From Candidatus Altimarinota bacterium (lineage in GTDB: Bacteria; Patescibacteriota; Gracilibacteria; UBA1369; GCA-2718715): 64,000 bases of DNA. Where the stretch lies: NCBI GenBank assembly GCA_041242255.1, contig JBESAV010000001.1, positions 928,001 to 992,000 on the forward strand. Direction: 5' to 3'. Every line of letters starts with the position of its first letter. The first letter of the stretch is position 1. A model generated the notes under the pieces. The model worked only from the letters and a program-made list of their open reading frames with translations. It searched no databases and had not been told where the DNA came from. This document shows positions 27,016-35,882 of this stretch, piece after piece. The position numbers and the translations under genes were made by a program.

Positions 27016-27219
27016 TTATGCTTTTGCAGCCTCTTTTTTCTTTGTTGTTTTCTTAGCAGTAGTTTTTTTAGCTACTTTTTTCTTATCTTTCTTTGCATCT
27101 TTTGCTTCTTCCTCTCTTCTTTTTCTAGCTAAGAATTTGTTTCTTCTTTTTCTCTTTTTTGCTTTAGGAAAACTTTTCCCTACAAAACAATGTTGTTTTG
27201 ATGATGATCTATTACTCAT
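27016..27219 (-). CDS. Small, highly basic protein with an H1-like AKKTT tail
   Basis: 67 aa K/R-rich ORF with its own promoter (TTGATT-N17-TATATT, 27276-27248) and terminator. Confidence 0.75.
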   Translation of the reverse strand: MSNRSSSKQHCFVGKSFPKAKKRKRRNKFLARKRREEEAKDAKKDKKKVAKKTTAKKTTKKKEAAKA

Positions 27220-27258: not shown

Positions 27259-27287
27259 TTGCCAAACCTAAATCAAGTAATTATAAT
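27259..27287 (+). promoter_or_regulatory. Sigma70 promoter of hrcA-grpE, TTGCCA-N17-TATAAT
   Basis: Near-consensus hexamers about 30 nt before the hrcA ATG. Confidence 0.7.
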
Positions 27288-27318: not shown

Positions 27319-28035
27319 ATGCGCGAAAGACAACAAAAAATACTCAAAGCCATAATTCAAGAATTCATTAAGTCAGCTCAACCTGTTGGATCAAAAACCA
27401 TCATGGTTGGCTACAACTTTCAAGTAAGCCCTGCCACTATTCGTAGCGATATGGCCTCTCTAGAAAAAGAAGGCTTAGTTATTCAGCCACATACTTCAGC
27501 TGGAAGAATTCCTACAGACCTAGGGTACAGAGTTTTTGTTAACGACCTCCTCGACCTAGAAGAAGCAAGAAAAATTGCCAAACCACTACTTCAAGATGTA
27601 CGTCAAAAATTCCTGAAAGAACAAGTCAAAAAACGTATCCAAGATGCTGTATCAGTTCTATCAGAATCAACTCAAAACATCAGTTTTGCCACATTTCCAG
27701 ATTCAAGAGCCTTTTACTTAGGACTTAGTAACGTTCTAAAGAAACCAGAATTTTTCCAAGACCCACTTCAAGCCAGTCAAGTTATAGAAGTTTTTGAACA
27801 CAACGACAACTTCCTAAAAACAATCGACTCATTAGAGATAAGCCCAAACAAATCAGAAATATTCATCGGACAAGAAAATATTATCCCCGAAATCCAAAGT
27901 TGTAGTATGATCATATCCAAATACGCCCACCAAGACATCCAAGGTTATATCGGAATACTTGGGCCAACTAGAATGAATTACGCTACAAACTCTGTAATTC
28001 TCGAAGAAATAACTAAACTAATCAATCATGAATAA
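27319..28035 (+). CDS. hrcA: Heat-inducible transcription repressor (short form)
   Basis: RQQKILKAII, PVGSK, SPATIRSDM, QPHTSAGRIPT, GILGPTRMNY. Confidence 0.95.
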   Translation: MRERQQKILKAIIQEFIKSAQPVGSKTIMVGYNFQVSPATIRSDMASLEKEGLVIQPHTSAGRIPTDLGYRVFVNDLLDLEEARKIAKPLLQDVRQKFLKEQVKKRIQDAVSVLSESTQNISFATFPDSRAFYLGLSNVLKKPEFFQDPLQASQVIEVFEHNDNFLKTIDSLEISPNKSEIFIGQENIIPEIQSCSMIISKYAHQDIQGYIGILGPTRMNYATNSVILEEITKLINHE

Positions 28036-28510
28036 AGACGACAAAAAAACTGAAACTACAGAACAAGATATTCAAACTCTTCAAGCAGATCTAGAAAATA
28101 TGACTAACACTGCCAAAAGAGCCTTAGCAGATCTTCAAAACTTCAAAAGACACGCCGAAGAACAACGCTCAACTCTTATGAACATGGGGCAAATCGACAT
28201 TATTACCAAAATAATGCCAATCTACGACAACCTTCAAAGAGCCATCTCACAAACCCCAGAAGAAATAAAAGATAACGACTGGGTAAAAGGAGTTCATAGT
28301 ATCCAAGAACAATTCCTCAAACTCCTCCAAAACTCAGGCCTAGAACTTCTTCCTGGAACCGGAAAACAAGCTGACCCAAACCACCACGAAATCATCACAG
28401 CAGTTCCAGGAGCACCTCAAAACCAAATCATAGAAACCCTAGAGCAAGGCTTCACATTTAACGACAAATTAATCAAACCATCAAAAGTAGTTGTAGGTTC
28501 AGATCAATAA
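28028..28510 (+). CDS. grpE: Nucleotide exchange factor GrpE
   Basis: RALADLQNFKR, DNLQRA, DPNHHE, GF...LIKPSKVVV. Confidence 0.93.
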   Translation: MNKDDKKTETTEQDIQTLQADLENMTNTAKRALADLQNFKRHAEEQRSTLMNMGQIDIITKIMPIYDNLQRAISQTPEEIKDNDWVKGVHSIQEQFLKLLQNSGLELLPGTGKQADPNHHEIITAVPGAPQNQIIETLEQGFTFNDKLIKPSKVVVGSDQ

Positions 28511-29501: not shown

Positions 29502-29960
29502 TTAAATTAAACCACTCGTAGCTAAAAAATATCCGACCCCAGCAGCAAAACAAGCAATCCATACCAACTTCCAAATATTCATCTCAAAATTATTTGGCAT
29601 TCTCTGAATAGCACCATCTCTAACAGGATTTAAACTAACATCAGTTTTTTTGCTATTAACTAAGTTCATACTCCCTTTCACATCTGGCTCAACCGTATCT
29701 TGATTAGAACCTAAATACTTCACTCTAACATTAGATTCATCAAATTCATCCGTTTCAATACTATCAAAAAAACCACTAGGCTTACGATTTTCAAACACAT
29801 CTAGTTTACCATCTCCATCACTATCTAAAAATCTTCTAAACTCTTCTGGAACATCCTCCAAAGAGGTGTACTCCTTGTCTCCAACTCTATAAACCGTATT
29901 ATCAGTAAACAAAGAACCAAACTCAACCTTTAGTTTTTTCATAAATAGAATTAATTTCAT
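29502..29960 (-). CDS. Hypothetical protein with a C-terminal TM anchor and an EF-hand-like DxDGDG loop
   Basis: EYTSLEDVPEEFRRFLDSDGDGKLD; C-terminal hydrophobic helix. Confidence 0.6.
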   Translation of the reverse strand: MKLILFMKKLKVEFGSLFTDNTVYRVGDKEYTSLEDVPEEFRRFLDSDGDGKLDVFENRKPSGFFDSIETDEFDESNVRVKYLGSNQDTVEPDVKGSMNLVNSKKTDVSLNPVRDGAIQRMPNNFEMNIWKLVWIACFAAGVGYFLATSGLI

Positions 29961-29991
29961 CTATTCTACATCATTTTAAATCTCAATCTAC

Positions 29992-30019
29992 TTGACATAT
30001 TGTAAATCTAAAATAAAAT
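29992..30019 (+). promoter_or_regulatory. Sigma70 promoter TTGACA-N16-TAAAAT of small-ORF unit 1
   Basis: Consensus -35 and near-consensus -10. Confidence 0.6.
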
Positions 30020-30076
30020 AACCAAGTACTTATTAGTCAGGATTGGCCTGTGCTAATACTTCAATTGGAGGACAAA

Positions 30077-30211
30077 ATGTCTGAGTACGAAAGTAAGGCT
30101 GCCATCGACCATGAATATGTATGGCTCAACGAGAAAATCAAAACTGAAGATCAAAAACGAGAAAAAAAAGATAAGCCTAAACCAAAAGATATAGACCCTC
30201 ACATCAAGTGA
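30077..30211 (+). CDS. Small charged protein, 44 aa (MSEYESKAAIDHEYVWLNEK...DIDPHIK)
   Basis: Not in the ORF track; GGAGG 5 nt upstream, own promoter and strong terminator. Confidence 0.6.
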   Translation: MSEYESKAAIDHEYVWLNEKIKTEDQKREKKDKPKPKDIDPHIK

Positions 30212-30227
30212 GACTTGTACTCCACCC

Positions 30228-30257
30228 AACCGCCGTCATATGACGGCGGTTTTCTTT
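30228..30257 (+). terminator. Rho-independent terminator
   Basis: AACCGCCGTC-atat-GACGGCGGTT followed by TTCTTT. Confidence 0.88.
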
Positions 30258-30300
30258 AATATCCAATTTAAAATTTAAACAAACCATTCTATCCTAAAGC

Positions 30301-30441
30301 TTATACTTGCACTGCATTGATAATCAAATCATAGACCTGAACTTGAATCTTCCTAAGTAAAATAAAACTAGCATCCAAAAGTCCTCCTCTTTCATCCCGC
30401 AACTTATCAACTATTTCTTCAGCTAATTTTTCTAAATTCAT
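30301..30441 (-). CDS. Possible small protein, 46 aa (MNLEKLAEEIVDKLRDERGG...)
   Basis: Open frame with G/T-rich codons like other minus-strand genes, lying between the two plus-strand micro-units. Confidence 0.35.
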   Translation of the reverse strand: MNLEKLAEEIVDKLRDERGGLLDASFILLRKIQVQVYDLIINAVQV

Positions 30442-30507
30442 GTCTTCAATCACATCAACCTTTCCATTTCCAAACTTTCACACCTAATGCAATAAATCTA
30501 TTTAAAA

Positions 30508-30536
30508 TTGACAAAATTAAATTCCTAAAATAAATT
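30508..30536 (+). promoter_or_regulatory. Sigma70 promoter TTGACA-N17-TAAATT of small-ORF unit 2
   Basis: Consensus -35 with a 17-bp spacer. Confidence 0.6.
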
Positions 30537-30599
30537 CACGAATATCTTTCTCAGAAGATCAAGCATTCCGCTTGCGTCACGAGAAGATAAGGGGAAATC

Positions 30600-30773
30600 A
30601 TGGAAGACTTCGAGGAACTTAGAAGACAACAAGAACTACAAGAAGACGCTGAAGACCTGAAATGGTCTCCACAAAAGAACAAACACCATAAACGCAGAGA
30701 ACAAAAACCTCATAACCACCACCTCGACCCACCAACTAAAATTAACTTCAACGAGGACCTACCATTCAAATAA
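30600..30773 (+). CDS. Small charged protein, 57 aa, ending FNEDLPFK
   Basis: Not in the ORF track; AAGGGG SD-like motif, own promoter and terminator. Confidence 0.6.
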   Translation: MEDFEELRRQQELQEDAEDLKWSPQKNKHHKRREQKPHNHHLDPPTKINFNEDLPFK

Positions 30774-30786
30774 AACTTCCCCACTC

Positions 30787-30812
30787 AAACCGACCCTCAA
30801 AAGTCGGTTTTT
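30787..30812 (+). terminator. Rho-independent terminator
   Basis: AAACCGAC-cctcaaaa-GTCGGTTT followed by TT. Confidence 0.8.
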
Positions 30813-30841
30813 CCTTGAATTATAAATTCATAAAATTTAAA

Positions 30842-30868
30842 CTAGCACTCTCTAAAAATGAGTGCTAA
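30842..30868 (+). promoter_or_regulatory. CIRCE operator (HrcA site) at the dnaK promoter
   Basis: CTAGCACTC-N9-GAGTGCTAA against consensus TTAGCACTC-N9-GAGTGCTAA; overlaps TTGAAT-N17-TAAACT (30815-30843). Confidence 0.95.
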
Positions 30869-30904
30869 TATCAAGTTACAAATTAAAATTTAATCACTAA
30901 TTAA

Positions 30905-32800
30905 ATGGGAAGAATTATAGGTATCGATCTAGGTACAACTAATTCATGTTTCGCAATCATGCAAGGTGGTGAAGCAACAGTTATCAACAACCAAGAAGGT
31001 AACCGTACTACTCCATCCATGGTTGCCATGAAAGATGAAGAAAGATTAGTAGGTACACCTGCCAAAAGACAAGCAGTTGTAAATCCACTAAACACTATTT
31101 TCTCAGCTAAAAGATTAATTGGTCACAAGTTCGACGAGATCAAAGACATCGTCGACAAACTTCCATATGAAGTAAAAAAAGGACCAAAAGGTGAATGTCT
31201 TATCATCATGAATGGTAAAGAATACAGACCAGCTGAAATCTCAGCAATGGTACTCCAAAAAATCAAATCAGACGCCGAAGCCTACCTAGGAGAACCAGTA
31301 ACTGATGCAGTTATAACTGTTCCAGCTTACTTCGACGACTCTCAAAGAAAAGCAACCAAAGACGCAGGAAAAATCGCTGGGCTAAACGTACAAAGAATTA
31401 TCAACGAACCAACAGCTGCTTCCCTAGCCTACGGTATCGACAAAGAAGGCGGAGACAAAAAAGTAGCAGTTTACGATTTAGGTGGAGGTACATTCGACGT
31501 ATCCATCCTTGAGATCGCCGACATAGACGGCGAAAAACAAATCGAAGTACTAGCCACAAACGGTAACACACAATTAGGTGGAGATGACTTCGACAACGTT
31601 ATAACTCAACACATTTTAGACGAATTCAAAAAAGACCAAGGTATTGATCTTTCTAAAGACAAAGCAGCACTTCAACGTATCAACGAAGCTGCTGAAAAAG
31701 CTAAGATCGAGTTATCTTCAGCTCAAGAAACTGAAGTAAATCTTCCATTCCTTACCGCCGACGCATCAGGTCCAAAACATCTAAATCTCAAAGTAACAAG
31801 AGCCAAACTTGAAGAATTAGTAGATGAACTTCTAGAAAAGACAGTGGAACCATGCAGAACAGCTATCAAAGATGCTAAAATCTATGAATCGGACATCGAC
31901 GAAGTAATCCTAGTTGGAGGAATGACTCGTATGCCAAAAGTAGCAGAAAAAGTTAAATCAATCTTTGGTAAAGAACCACACAAAGGTCTAAACCCTGACG
32001 AAGTTGTAGCCCTAGGTGCTGCTATCCAAGGTGGAGTCCTTCAAGGAGATGTTAAAGATGTACTTCTTCTAGATGTAATTCCTCTTACACTTAGTATCGA
32101 AACAATGGGAGGAGTTGCTACACCACTTATCGAAAAAAATACAACAATCCCAACTTCAAAATCACAAGTATTCTCAACAGCAGCTGACAACCAACCAGCA
32201 GTACAAATCCACGTACTACAAGGTGAACGTTCAATGGCAGCTGACAACAAATCCCTCGGAACATTCACTCTAGATGGTATTCCACCAGCTCCAAGAGGAG
32301 TTCCTCAGATCGAAGTTAGTTTCGACGTTGATGCCAATGGTATCGTAAAAGTTACTGCCAAAGACAAGGGAACAGGTAAAGAGCAACACATTACCATCAC
32401 AGGAAGCTCTGGAATGTCAGATGATGAGATCAAACAAATGCAAGAAGAAGCTGAAAAATACGCCGAAGAAGACAAAAAGAAAAAAGAACAAATTGAAACA
32501 ATCAACCAAGCAGAATCAACAGTCTTCCAAACTGAAAAAATTCTAAAAGAAAACGAAGACAAAATCCCAGCCGAAGTAAAAGAATCAGTTCAACCAAAAG
32601 TTGATGAGATCAAAAAGATCCTCGAAGACAAAGAAAATATCAATCACGATGATCTAAAAACTAAACTAGAAGAACTCAACCAAGAAGTTCAAAAAATCGG
32701 ATCATCAATGTATCAAGAACAACCACAACCAGACCAGTCTGAACCAGAACAAAACAAATCTGATGCAGACATAGAAGGAGAAGTAGTTGATGAAGAATAA
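30905..32800 (+). CDS. dnaK: Chaperone DnaK
   Basis: [39 protein letters not shown]. Confidence 0.99.
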
Positions 32801-32852: not shown

Positions 32853-33380
32853 ATGAAGAACATAGCATACATAGATGGCGCCAACCTCCAAAAATCCCTA
32901 CCCAAAGTAGACTACCAAAAACTTCAAGATTACTTATCCAAAAAACACAAGATAACCCATACCTACATTTTTCTAGGTTATCTAAAATCCCAAGAAAAAT
33001 TCTACAAACAACTCAAAAAATCCGGATATAAAATCATATTCAAAGAAGCAGTTAGAGGCAGAGATGGTAAAACCAAAGCTAACATCGACGTCGAACTAAC
33101 TATCCAAGCTACCCAAGATTATTACGAACACAACCCCAAACAAACCATACTCATTAGTGGAGATGGTGATTTCTCAAGCTTGGTCGATTTCTGGAAAGAC
33201 AAAAAAGTAAAAGCCAAAATTCTCGCCCCAGATGAAAAGTCATGCTCGTACCTTCTCAAAAAAAGAAAAATCTGGATAACCTACCTCAAACAACCAAAGA
33301 TCTACAACCAAATCAAAAAATCCAAACCAAAAAGATTTTCAATCTTGGCAATCCTCAAAAAACTGTTCAGAAGATCCTAA
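32853..33380 (+). CDS. NYN (LabA/DUF88, PIN-like) domain protein
   Basis: YIDGANL, KANIDVEL, ISGDGDF. Confidence 0.9.
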   Translation: MKNIAYIDGANLQKSLPKVDYQKLQDYLSKKHKITHTYIFLGYLKSQEKFYKQLKKSGYKIIFKEAVRGRDGKTKANIDVELTIQATQDYYEHNPKQTILISGDGDFSSLVDFWKDKKVKAKILAPDEKSCSYLLKKRKIWITYLKQPKIYNQIKKSKPKRFSILAILKKLFRRS

Positions 33381-34722: not shown

Positions 34723-34832
34723 ACAAAAAATTAATTACCTCCAAATTACCTGAGATATAGTTAATTGACAAAATCGAATAGTTTGACACTACCAACAAAA
34801 CCTTTAATATAAAAGTAATGTAATTCACAAAC

Positions 34833-34991
34833 ATGAACGCAAACAGACCAAGCAGTAATTCAGACAGATTAAGAGAAATCGAAGAAGCTCTAAGAGAGCA
34901 AATCCAAAGATCAAAAAACTCTGAATCTAGCGAGTACTTAAAAAAAACAACTCTTTCAACAAACGATAAACTTAATGGACTACTAGGTTAA
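34833..34991 (+). CDS. Possible small protein, 52 aa (MNANRPSSNSDRLREIEEALREQ...)
   Basis: Not in the ORF track; preceded by TTGACA-N16-TAATAT (34783-34810). Confidence 0.45.
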   Translation: MNANRPSSNSDRLREIEEALREQIQRSKNSESSEYLKKTTLSTNDKLNGLLG

Positions 34992-35882
34992 TCCCCTACT
35001 ATTCTTAATAAGTTTATGTCCGATGAAACTATTCTCACGCAGCTCCGCTGCGTGTTTTAATAATACAAGAAAAACCTGTAGAAAAGAAAAAGGCCCAATC
35101 ACATCAAATATAGAAACCTCCACACCTAACCTCTCTACTTTTCGGTATTCAGCAATGAATTTATTCAGACTATCTTCATAATTCACATAAACCGCACCCA
35201 TTCTAGCCAAACTTTTTCGATTCTCACCAAAGAACTGCTCAAAATAATGATCATATTCCAAAGCTAAACCATCAGCCGCCATCGCTACATTCGTACCATC
35301 ACCATAAAAGAAACTTTCTCCCTCAACTTGAAAAGGAAAGTTACTAACCCCAGCTCCAGGATTTAAATCATTAAAGTCATGTACAACCATCCTTAATTTT
35401 TCTAACTCTTGGTTTACATCTGCAAATACATTTTTATTTATTTCCATATCCAACCCATATATGTTTCTTGGAAAATCAAAAGTAACAGAAATCTGATGGA
35501 AAACATCAAACATATTCCTAGACTGAAGATATAGACTATGTGAGACACTAACCAATTCATTCAAACCATAACTATATCCATCAAAGTACAAACCTTGTAT
35601 CCTATCCCCCACTCCAAGCAAACCTTTAAAATCCTCACACTTATTCTCCAAATGATCAAAAAGCTCACGCCTTAAATCATAGTTAAACCTATGTCTGTAT
35701 GAATCAACACCAAACAAATCATCAAAAAAACCTCTACCTGGACCTGGTAAATTTCCCGTTCGCCGAACATTACCCACAACATTTACGTATCTATCTGCTA
35801 CATATTCAAAGTTAGTCCTGTATTGTTCATCGCTCAAGAAATGCCTTCTCGAACCATCTTGATACTCCCCTAAACGATCCAT
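34983..35882 (-). CDS. Hypothetical protein
   Basis: 299 aa ORF with strand-typical composition; no motif recognised. Confidence 0.6.
   Translation of the reverse strand: MDRLGEYQDGSRRHFLSDEQYRTNFEYVADRYVNVVGNVRRTGNLPGPGRGFFDDLFGVDSYRHRFNYDLRRELFDHLENKCEDFKGLLGVGDRIQGLYFDGYSYGLNELVSVSHSLYLQSRNMFDVFHQISVTFDFPRNIYGLDMEINKNVFADVNQELEKLRMVVHDFNDLNPGAGVSNFPFQVEGESFFYGDGTNVAMAADGLALEYDHYFEQFFGENRKSLARMGAVYVNYEDSLNKFIAEYRKVERLGVEVSIFDVIGPFSFLQVFLVLLKHAAELRENSFIGHKLIKNSRGLT

Follow-up and report, generated by a model that had tools for sequence, protein, structure and literature searches.

Analysis of a 64,000 nucleotide (nt) window, by which we mean the whole stretch of DNA analysed (G000:C1:928001-992000), revealed two small gene-like units lying one behind the other on the plus strand between grpE and dnaK, each of which has a short open reading frame (ORF) behind a Shine-Dalgarno (SD) sequence and carries, shortly after its stop codon, a C-rich stretch complementary to its own start region. 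The source genome, G000, belongs to the marine Candidatus Peregrinibacteria and consists of one contig, C1, of about 1 Mb (1,000,477 bases, 36.4% G+C). The gene order at the locus is hrcA (27319-28035), grpE (28028-28510), two minus-strand genes, unit 1, unit 2, an operator of the type known as controlling inverted repeat of chaperone expression (CIRCE) and dnaK (30905-32800). The two minus-strand genes are a YHYH-domain gene (Pfam E 4.5e-43) and an orphan gene of 152 amino acids (aa).

The layout that the original prediction had assigned to both units, namely a promoter, a 5' hairpin, an SD, an ORF, a tail element and a terminator, was recovered element by element on the plus strand. The promoter of unit 1 (29992-30019) consists of TTGACA (29992-29997), a 16 nt spacer and TAAAAT (30014-30019) and scores 11/12, promoter scores being the number of positions, out of 12, that match the sigma-70 consensus. 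It is followed by a hairpin of 11 pairs with a bulged U at 30051 (30031-30058), present in the lowest-energy and centroid folds, by the SD region UGGAGGACAA (30066-30075, with GGAGG at 30067-30071) and by a hydrophilic ORF of 44 aa (30077-30211, with ATG at 30077 and TGA at 30209-30211). The tail element TTGTACTCCA (UUGUACUCCA), located at 30215-30224, is complementary to the SD region at 9 of 10 positions and, in a second register, to GAGUACGA at +7 to +14 of the ORF. The intrinsic terminator of unit 1 (30228-30258, with the hairpin at 30228-30251) has 10 pairs, seven of them G-C, a 4 nt loop and a T-rich tail.

The promoter of unit 2 (30508-30536) is composed of TTGACA (30508-30513), a 17 nt spacer and TAAATT (30531-30536) and scores 10/12. 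Its 5' hairpin (30543-30589), found in the lowest-energy and centroid folds with pair probabilities of 0.87-0.99, begins at the predicted 5' end and stops 1 nt short of the SD GGGGAA (30591-30596). The ORF of 57 aa, also hydrophilic, extends from 30600 to 30773 (ATG at 30600, TAA at 30771-30773), and the anti-SD UUCCCC at 30777-30782, that is +4 to +9 after the stop, is complementary to GGGGAA at all six positions. The intrinsic terminator (30788-30813, with the hairpin at 30788-30809; 7 pairs, 4 G-C, an 8 nt loop and a T run) was missed by one terminator scan and was found by a second scan and as a hairpin in the transcript fold. In both units the SD lies 5 nt before the ATG, the C-rich stretch begins 4 nt after the stop and the 5' hairpin starts no more than about 6 nt from the predicted 5' end; between the ORF and the terminator stem lie 16 nt in unit 1 and 14 nt in unit 2.

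The hrcA promoter at 27259 has a sigma-70 score like those of the two units, and the loose promoter class was not enriched in the region (12 found, 16.7 expected). A consensus scan, which weak promoters could escape, found no minus-strand promoter of at least 9/12 within 30000-30830 and one weak minus-strand terminator-like site at 30671-30650. Searches with the covariance models of Rfam 15 gave no match at the gathering score in the window, and with E values up to 1 the sole match within 29900-30920 was a chance mir-223 hit over the CIRCE site.

Folding of the predicted transcripts indicated that both fold better than their dinucleotide shuffles (unit 1, z -3.43, 0/200 as good; unit 2, z -2.70, 2/200 as good). 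The pairing of TTCCCC with GGGGAA that had been proposed for unit 2 was dominant, the helix being found in the lowest-energy and centroid structures with a probability of about 1.0 (0.81-1.00 per base); it was unchanged from 4 to 55 C and across four alternative start sites, and in a transcript cut before the tail the SD was about 50% unpaired. For unit 1 the proposed 9/10 complementarity stood while its dominance in the fold did not, as the SD-tail helix had a probability of 0.33-0.43 per base at 37 C and the lowest-energy fold uses the other register. Pairing of the unit 1 tail core anywhere within 30064-30092 reached 0.79 at 37 C, 0.61 at 20 C and 0.32 at 10 C. Folding of the 3' tail back to the start region is thus predicted robustly for unit 2 and, more weakly and in a different register, for unit 1. 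An RNA thermometer was considered and rejected, since the unit 2 helix was unmelted up to 55 C and the unit 1 SD pairing rises with temperature; the idea that the unit 1 hairpin is a degenerate CIRCE was likewise dropped, as a pattern search found no site there.

The SD-tail duplex energies were -10.5 kcal/mol (unit 1) and -11.1 kcal/mol (unit 2). Random genome segments of the same strand were as strong in fractions of 0.019 and 0.004, respectively, and the corresponding fractions among the 160 other pre-terminator tails were 0.019 and 0.000. When whole transcripts were folded with foreign same-strand tails, none of 16 reached the native pairing probability of unit 2, and none of 10 shuffles of unit 2's own tail reached the native value.

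The earlier statement that most other genes lack an SD proved true genome-wide: SD-like motifs precede 3.6% of 722 long ORFs (at least 150 aa) versus 5.7% of random positions. The 3' end of the 16S rRNA retains CCUCC. Strong SDs, defined as duplexes with the 16S tail of -8 kcal/mol or better at the first ATG, were found at 7 of 30 small terminator-proximal ORFs (25-120 aa, ending just before one of 162 strict terminators) and at 8 of the 722 long ones (odds ratio 27, Fisher p 4e-7). Thirteen distinct promoter-terminator pairs 100-500 nt apart were found, about half of them with an SD before the longest ORF.

Three further units of the same design were identified in G000. Unit C (C1:471819-472091, plus strand) has a hydrophobic ORF of 56 aa and a TTGACA-type promoter, unit E (C1:370771-370577, minus strand) has a hydrophobic ORF of 39 aa and no promoter found, and unit G (C1:587279-586886, minus strand) has a hydrophilic ORF of 92 aa and a TTGACA-type promoter. 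All three carry a strong SD, a small ORF unrelated to the others, a post-stop anti-SD and a terminator; in their full-transcript folds the SD pairs with an element located from 5 nt ahead of the stop codon's end to 12 nt beyond it, with a probability of 0.8-1.0 per SD base, and for each of them 0/16 foreign tails reached the native value. Units I and D showed little SD pairing in full-transcript folds, and units F, H, J and K no notable complementarity. A search with the unit G peptide returned the peptide itself alone.

Permutation tests, in which the pairing of each start with its own tail was compared with swapped pairings, gave p 0.0003 for the hand-listed SD-bearing units (n=11) and p 0.004 when units 1 and 2 were left out (n=9). 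For the systematic small set the values were p 0.0074 with the SD-picked start (n=34), p 0.0006 with the first ATG, or GTG or TTG as fallback (n=34), and p 0.013 with ATG starts only (n=30). On the contrary, the long genes (n=74) showed no own-tail effect (p 0.72 and 0.63). The same layout, which the original prediction had suggested seeking across the genome and its relatives, thus occurs in three more small genes of G000 and is absent from G004, a genome of the same family. The elements, the predicted structures, their specificity against the controls and their recurrence in G000 are observed or computed, and they are suggestive, not proof, of a class of self-masking small genes in this genome.

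Two side observations concern these other units. The hydrophobic peptides of units C and E are better type I toxin candidates than those of units 1 and 2. Directly after unit E, at G000:C1:370486 on the minus strand, lies a second SD-led ORF, hydrophilic and of 55 aa, with GGAGG 7 nt before its ATG, and the two form a tandem pair, like units 1 and 2.

Analysis of codon usage supported the coding status of both units. The log-odds scores were 0.293 (unit 1) and 0.279 (unit 2), which correspond to the 51st and 28th percentiles of real-gene chunks; scores as high occurred in 1.3% and 1.8% of 225 size-matched antisense ORFs, in 0/71 off-frame ORFs and in 7.8% and 9.4% of the 64 intergenic ORFs measuring 40-60 aa. 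Grand average of hydropathy (GRAVY) values were -1.69 and -1.98, with best 15 aa windows of -0.44 and -0.61, so that neither peptide has a hydrophobic window, and both are probably disordered. Searches of 9 other family genomes found no relative of either peptide at E up to 10. In a search of 5.8 billion protein clusters each peptide matched itself alone, as did the unit 2 peptide among 1.84 billion representatives; the ESM Atlas gave no usable match, and in Pfam, NCBIfam and PHROGs neither units 1 and 2 nor a further nine small ORFs had a match above the cut-off. The C-termini of units 1, 2 and G share a hydrophobic residue followed by Asp-Pro (DIDPHIK, HLDPPTK, DFDPDVIN), which in three short sequences may well be chance.

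The original prediction had also placed the two units in one family. No significant similarity was found between the peptides (BLASTP E 0.51), and paralogy is not supported. A likeness of the 3' ends suggested by MAFFT was not upheld either, since the tails align no better than background, their local alignment score being reached by 4396 of 13041 pairs among the 162 terminator tails. Two shared motifs are at most hints of a connection: CYCCACYCAA has 12 copies in the genome, and (A)CCG follows it in only two of them, those of units 1 and 2, and TTGACA-N9-14-CTAAAATAAA was found only at the promoters of units 1 and 2.

Strain comparison was based on contigs of one metagenome run from another study (X5) and one short contig from X2, and covers the listed part of the differences. 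The X5 contig covering 30474-30636 has 9 differences, and the five listed all fall in the promoter spacer at 30517-30524. In that contig the 80 nt at 30637-30716 of unit 2 are replaced by 77 unlike letters with the frame kept, and its continuation over 30717-30917 has 4 differences, none of them in the ORF end or in the anti-SD. In unit 1, another X5 contig joins 30115 to 30193 and has a G>A change at 30232, in the terminator stem. An A>T change at 30017 in X5 leaves the -10 box recognisable, and a T>C change at 30051 in the strain variant falls on the bulge of the hairpin. The diverged X2 contig matches only the unit 1 hairpin (30032-30063) and continues with AGGAG, an ATG and a start two codons shorter. 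Judged from these sequences, the ends of each unit are kept and the ORF middles drift, which would fit an RNA-level constraint, a fast-evolving peptide, or both. The frame kept in unit 2 and the X2 contig, with its hairpin, AGGAG and ATG and a difference of two whole codons, speak for coding, as does the ideal distance between SD and ATG in a genome where strong SDs are rare. Between the units a minus-strand ORF of 46-50 aa (30301-30453) has a gene-like codon score of 0.30; it was not counted in the feature, as the X5 contigs pass into unlike sequence at 30266 and 30474 and leave the part in between uncovered.

DNA searches of G000 and 40 relatives gave just two chance matches of about 30 nt, and no comparable unit was present at nine dnaK loci of the family or at 15 hrcA loci at the order level. 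A metagenome scan with the 152 aa neighbour protein yielded three distant fragments. The DNA of G000 at this stretch is also present in marine metagenome runs, with no RNA run among those listed and DNA contigs alone among those compared, and the relatives of HrcA (50-58% identity) all come from metagenome-assembled genomes of Candidatus Peregrinibacteria, Peribacteria or Patescibacteria.

The suggestion that the units are stress-related rested on their adjacency to dnaK and is not borne out by the layout of the locus. A pattern search of the whole window with up to 3 mismatches, using the CIRCE consensus (TTAGCACTC, 9 nt, GAGTGCTAA), returned a single site at 30842-30868, with one mismatch and 37 nt upstream of dnaK, and none inside units 1 and 2. 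Across nine genomes of the family, grpE directly abuts CIRCE and dnaK in three, and at least four others carry unrelated inserts in the gap. As the inserts differ between relatives, the grpE-dnaK gap is a variable spot, and a place beside dnaK does not mark the units as heat-shock genes. Membership of one homologous family and a role as toxins or stress genes are not supported for units 1 and 2.

Several features of the surroundings are recorded here in their own right. The CIRCE spacer contains TATAAT at 8 of 9 family loci and reads TCTAAAAAT at this one. A very basic ORF of 67 aa (MSNRSSSKQH...; window about 27019-27219, minus strand, G000:C1:955219) is divergent from hrcA, and versions of 40-104 aa occupy the same position at five family loci, so that it represents a conserved small protein. 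Immediately 3' of dnaK lies a gene for a 175 aa protein with a NYN domain (PIN-like nuclease; 32853-33380, plus strand, Pfam E 3e-18). A further micro-unit at 34783-35055 on the plus strand has TTGACA, a 16 nt spacer, TAATAT, a hydrophilic ORF of 52 aa with a gene-like codon score of 0.311 and a terminator; it has neither an SD nor start-tail complementarity.

The plus strand of G000 contains 23% C and 13% G genome-wide. GC skew on this strand was negative in 20 of 20 full 50 kb bins (-0.10 to -0.39), with no sign switch, and was positive (+0.05) only in the last remnant of 477 bases. The 366 plus-strand and 431 minus-strand genes each follow the bias of their own strand, and the contigs of G004 showed skews of just -0.18 to +0.13. 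A one-directional skew across a whole 1 Mb chromosome is unusual.

Comparison with known systems revealed that the mechanism cannot be called undescribed, as had been claimed. In the icaR mRNA of Staphylococcus aureus, UCCCCUG in the 3' untranslated region (UTR) forms a duplex with UAGGGGG, the SD, and prevents initiation (PMC3868564), and the descriptors of type I toxin mRNAs in T1TAdb include masking of the SD by an anti-SD, as in hok and aapA1 (PMC8594479). The units resemble icaR in that the G-rich SD is faced intramolecularly by a C-rich anti-SD from the 3' UTR of the same message, with no separate RNA; they differ in that icaR encodes a full-size repressor and has a long 3' UTR with the motif 260 nt after the stop, whereas the units encode 44-57 aa and carry the motif 4 nt after it. 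The icaR duplex is a substrate of RNase III, whose gene is present in our genome, while the predicted helices of the units, of just 6-10 base pairs (bp), probably are not, and repression has been demonstrated experimentally for icaR and is predicted from sequence and folding in units 1 and 2 (PMC3868564 for icaR).

The units share with hok and aapA1 a 5' stem-loop, a short ORF whose SD is masked by an anti-SD near the 3' end, a terminator and a full-length message predicted to be translationally inert (PMC8594479), and the sizes of 44 and 57 aa fit the criterion for type I toxins (usually <60 aa). On the contrary, the unit peptides are hydrophilic and not membrane-active, the consensus scan found no antisense RNA gene, and searches of Pfam, NCBIfam and PHROGs showed no sequence relationship to known toxin families; the toxin-like character once proposed for the units is not supported. 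Activation by 3' trimming is unlikely in the units because the element lies upstream of the terminator hairpin. In hbs of Bacillus subtilis, according to a review (PMC7821165), a short, highly structured message for a small protein likewise has paired ends in a host with RNase Y and RNase J; there the pairing guards a cleavage site and is coupled to active translation, whereas in the units it covers the SD.

Taken together, we favour, at a probability of about 0.5, the reading in which units 1 and 2 are small-protein genes, independent of one another and specific to their lineage, whose messages close on their own start region. That they are real genes we hold with moderate confidence, and they are probably real small genes with start-site occlusion in the style of icaR or hok. 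Each unit would yield a compact message of about 230-270 nt, started by a sigma-70-type promoter of its own, with the 5' stem-loop at or near its 5' end and the intrinsic terminator closing it. In the finished transcript the post-stop element would pair with the start region, that is with the SD in unit 2 and with the SD or codons 3-5 in unit 1; given this tail-start pairing, the message would close on itself, and ribosomes would load with difficulty as long as the helix stays shut. The opening might come from a terminating ribosome, as its footprint would cover the element, or from a helicase or a nuclease. Starting 4 nt past the stop, the element should be unwound by a ribosome that terminates there, and translation-coupled opening of the SD-tail helix is offered as a conjecture. 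By analogy with Bacillus, the 5' hairpins would fit a role as 5' stabilisers in an organism with RNase J and RNase Y. For units 1 and 2 we infer that they are transcribed and translated, that the pairing represses and that the helix is opened.

Several observations weigh against self-closing genes. Mononucleotide shuffles of the units' own tails match the duplex energy in 5.1% (unit 1) and 4.4% (unit 2) of cases, so that much of the fit is owed to composition, a C-rich tail facing a G-rich SD; two of the 16 foreign tails do as well as unit 1's own, and of the 10 shuffled unit 2 tails five retain a pairing probability of at least 0.5. In unit 1 the SD-tail pairing is absent from the lowest-energy fold, where the tail pairs with codons 3-5, it falls to about zero at 15 C or below, nearer sea temperature, and the SD is mostly paired locally even after removal of the tail. 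The energy model may overestimate how strong a 6 bp helix that spans a loop of about 180 nt is in the cell. Without units 1 and 2 the ATG-only permutation set is no longer significant (n=28, p 0.082). In G004 (896,559 bases) strong SDs were found at 0/12 small units and 2/626 long ORFs, with an own-tail p of 0.37; lacking such units and such a signal, it argues against deep conservation. The ORF middles are replaced or unalignable in the sole strain variant seen, and a clean loss of 77 nt at the 30115/30193 join would break the frame of unit 1. Both peptides, finally, are orphans in the searches of family genomes and large protein sets.

An unlikely alternative, though one with some weight, is that the units are ordinary small genes whose tail-SD complementarity is a by-product with no regulatory role. 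The plus strand being C-rich and G-poor genome-wide, any G-rich SD would find a C-rich partner near a terminator, and the results of the tail shuffles, the p value of 0.082 and the post hoc choice of units 1 and 2 from 64 kb all agree with this. Against a by-product stand the rarity of equal matches among random same-strand segments (0.004-0.019) and the 160 pre-terminator tails (0.000-0.019), the occurrence of units E and G, of the same design, on the G-rich strand, the lack of an own-tail preference in long genes and the position of the anti-SD, always within 12 nt of the stop.

We consider it improbable that the 5'-3' pairing mainly stabilises the messages, the closed form with its 5' stem-loop and 3' terminator keeping out RNase J and RNase Y. 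The genome does encode RNase J, two RNase Y-like proteins and RNase III, both 5' hairpins start close to the predicted 5' end, and in hbs of Bacillus subtilis, according to the review, pairing between the 5' and 3' UTRs protects against RNase Y (PMC7821165). The paired 5' partner in the units, however, is the SD or the first codons, the very place where the ribosome binds, and occlusion is therefore a direct consequence.

Similarly improbable is that the units are non-coding small RNAs, with the 5'-3' helix as a closing stem and the ORFs incidental. The lack of protein homologues found for either peptide, the strain variant that keeps the promoter and the 5' and 3' parts and replaces the ORF middles, and the better folding of the transcripts than of shuffles would agree with such RNAs. 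They are opposed by the SD that both units carry 5 nt ahead of an ATG while SDs are nearly absent from this genome, by ORFs that leave just 16 and 14 nt to the terminator, by codon scores that are gene-like and in the top 1-2% relative to antisense ORFs, by length differences in the variants that keep the frame and by the lack of an Rfam match.

The layout of the units agrees with the descriptors of type I toxin mRNAs (5' stem-loop, SD, small ORF, 3' anti-SD and terminator; PMC8594479). Tandem copies, too, are typical of type I toxin loci. Type I toxin-antitoxin modules, in which each ORF would be a toxin silenced by the fold-back and an antisense RNA antitoxin would be yet to be found, are nevertheless very improbable here, for the peptides are very hydrophilic and have no membrane segment, no minus-strand promoter of at least 9/12 was found within 30000-30830, and the anti-SD lies in the terminator-protected part, so that hok-like 3' trimming would first have to remove the terminator.

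Self-closing small-protein genes also admit a broader formulation, which we regard as doubtful, in which SD-led initiation is reserved in this genome for self-closing, small, stand-alone genes opened by terminating ribosomes as a self-reinforcing on/off switch. In all five units examined the anti-SD is located from 5 nt ahead of the stop codon's end to 12 nt beyond it and would fall within the footprint of the terminating ribosome, so that each ribosome completing the ORF would open the helix and make the SD available to the following one. Membrane and hydrophilic peptides would be served alike, and neither an antisense RNA nor a processing step would be necessary.

Bacteria of the Candidate Phyla Radiation are uncultured and their post-transcriptional gene control is largely unexplored. 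The silencing principle itself is already known, and what is new here is predicted fold-back masking in an organism that otherwise hardly uses SDs. Should the design not work, the locus would serve as a warning that G-rich SDs and C-rich tails pair readily in silico on a skewed strand. If the favoured reading is true, occlusion of the icaR/hok type between 5' and 3' ends would extend beyond the Firmicutes and Proteobacteria and beyond toxins, and gated small-protein genes could be sought in metagenomes by a simple signature, in which a strong SD, a small ORF and a terminator go together with an anti-SD placed right behind the stop. A genome nearly free of SD-led initiation would then keep the SD for a few small genes, supplied with a built-in mask.

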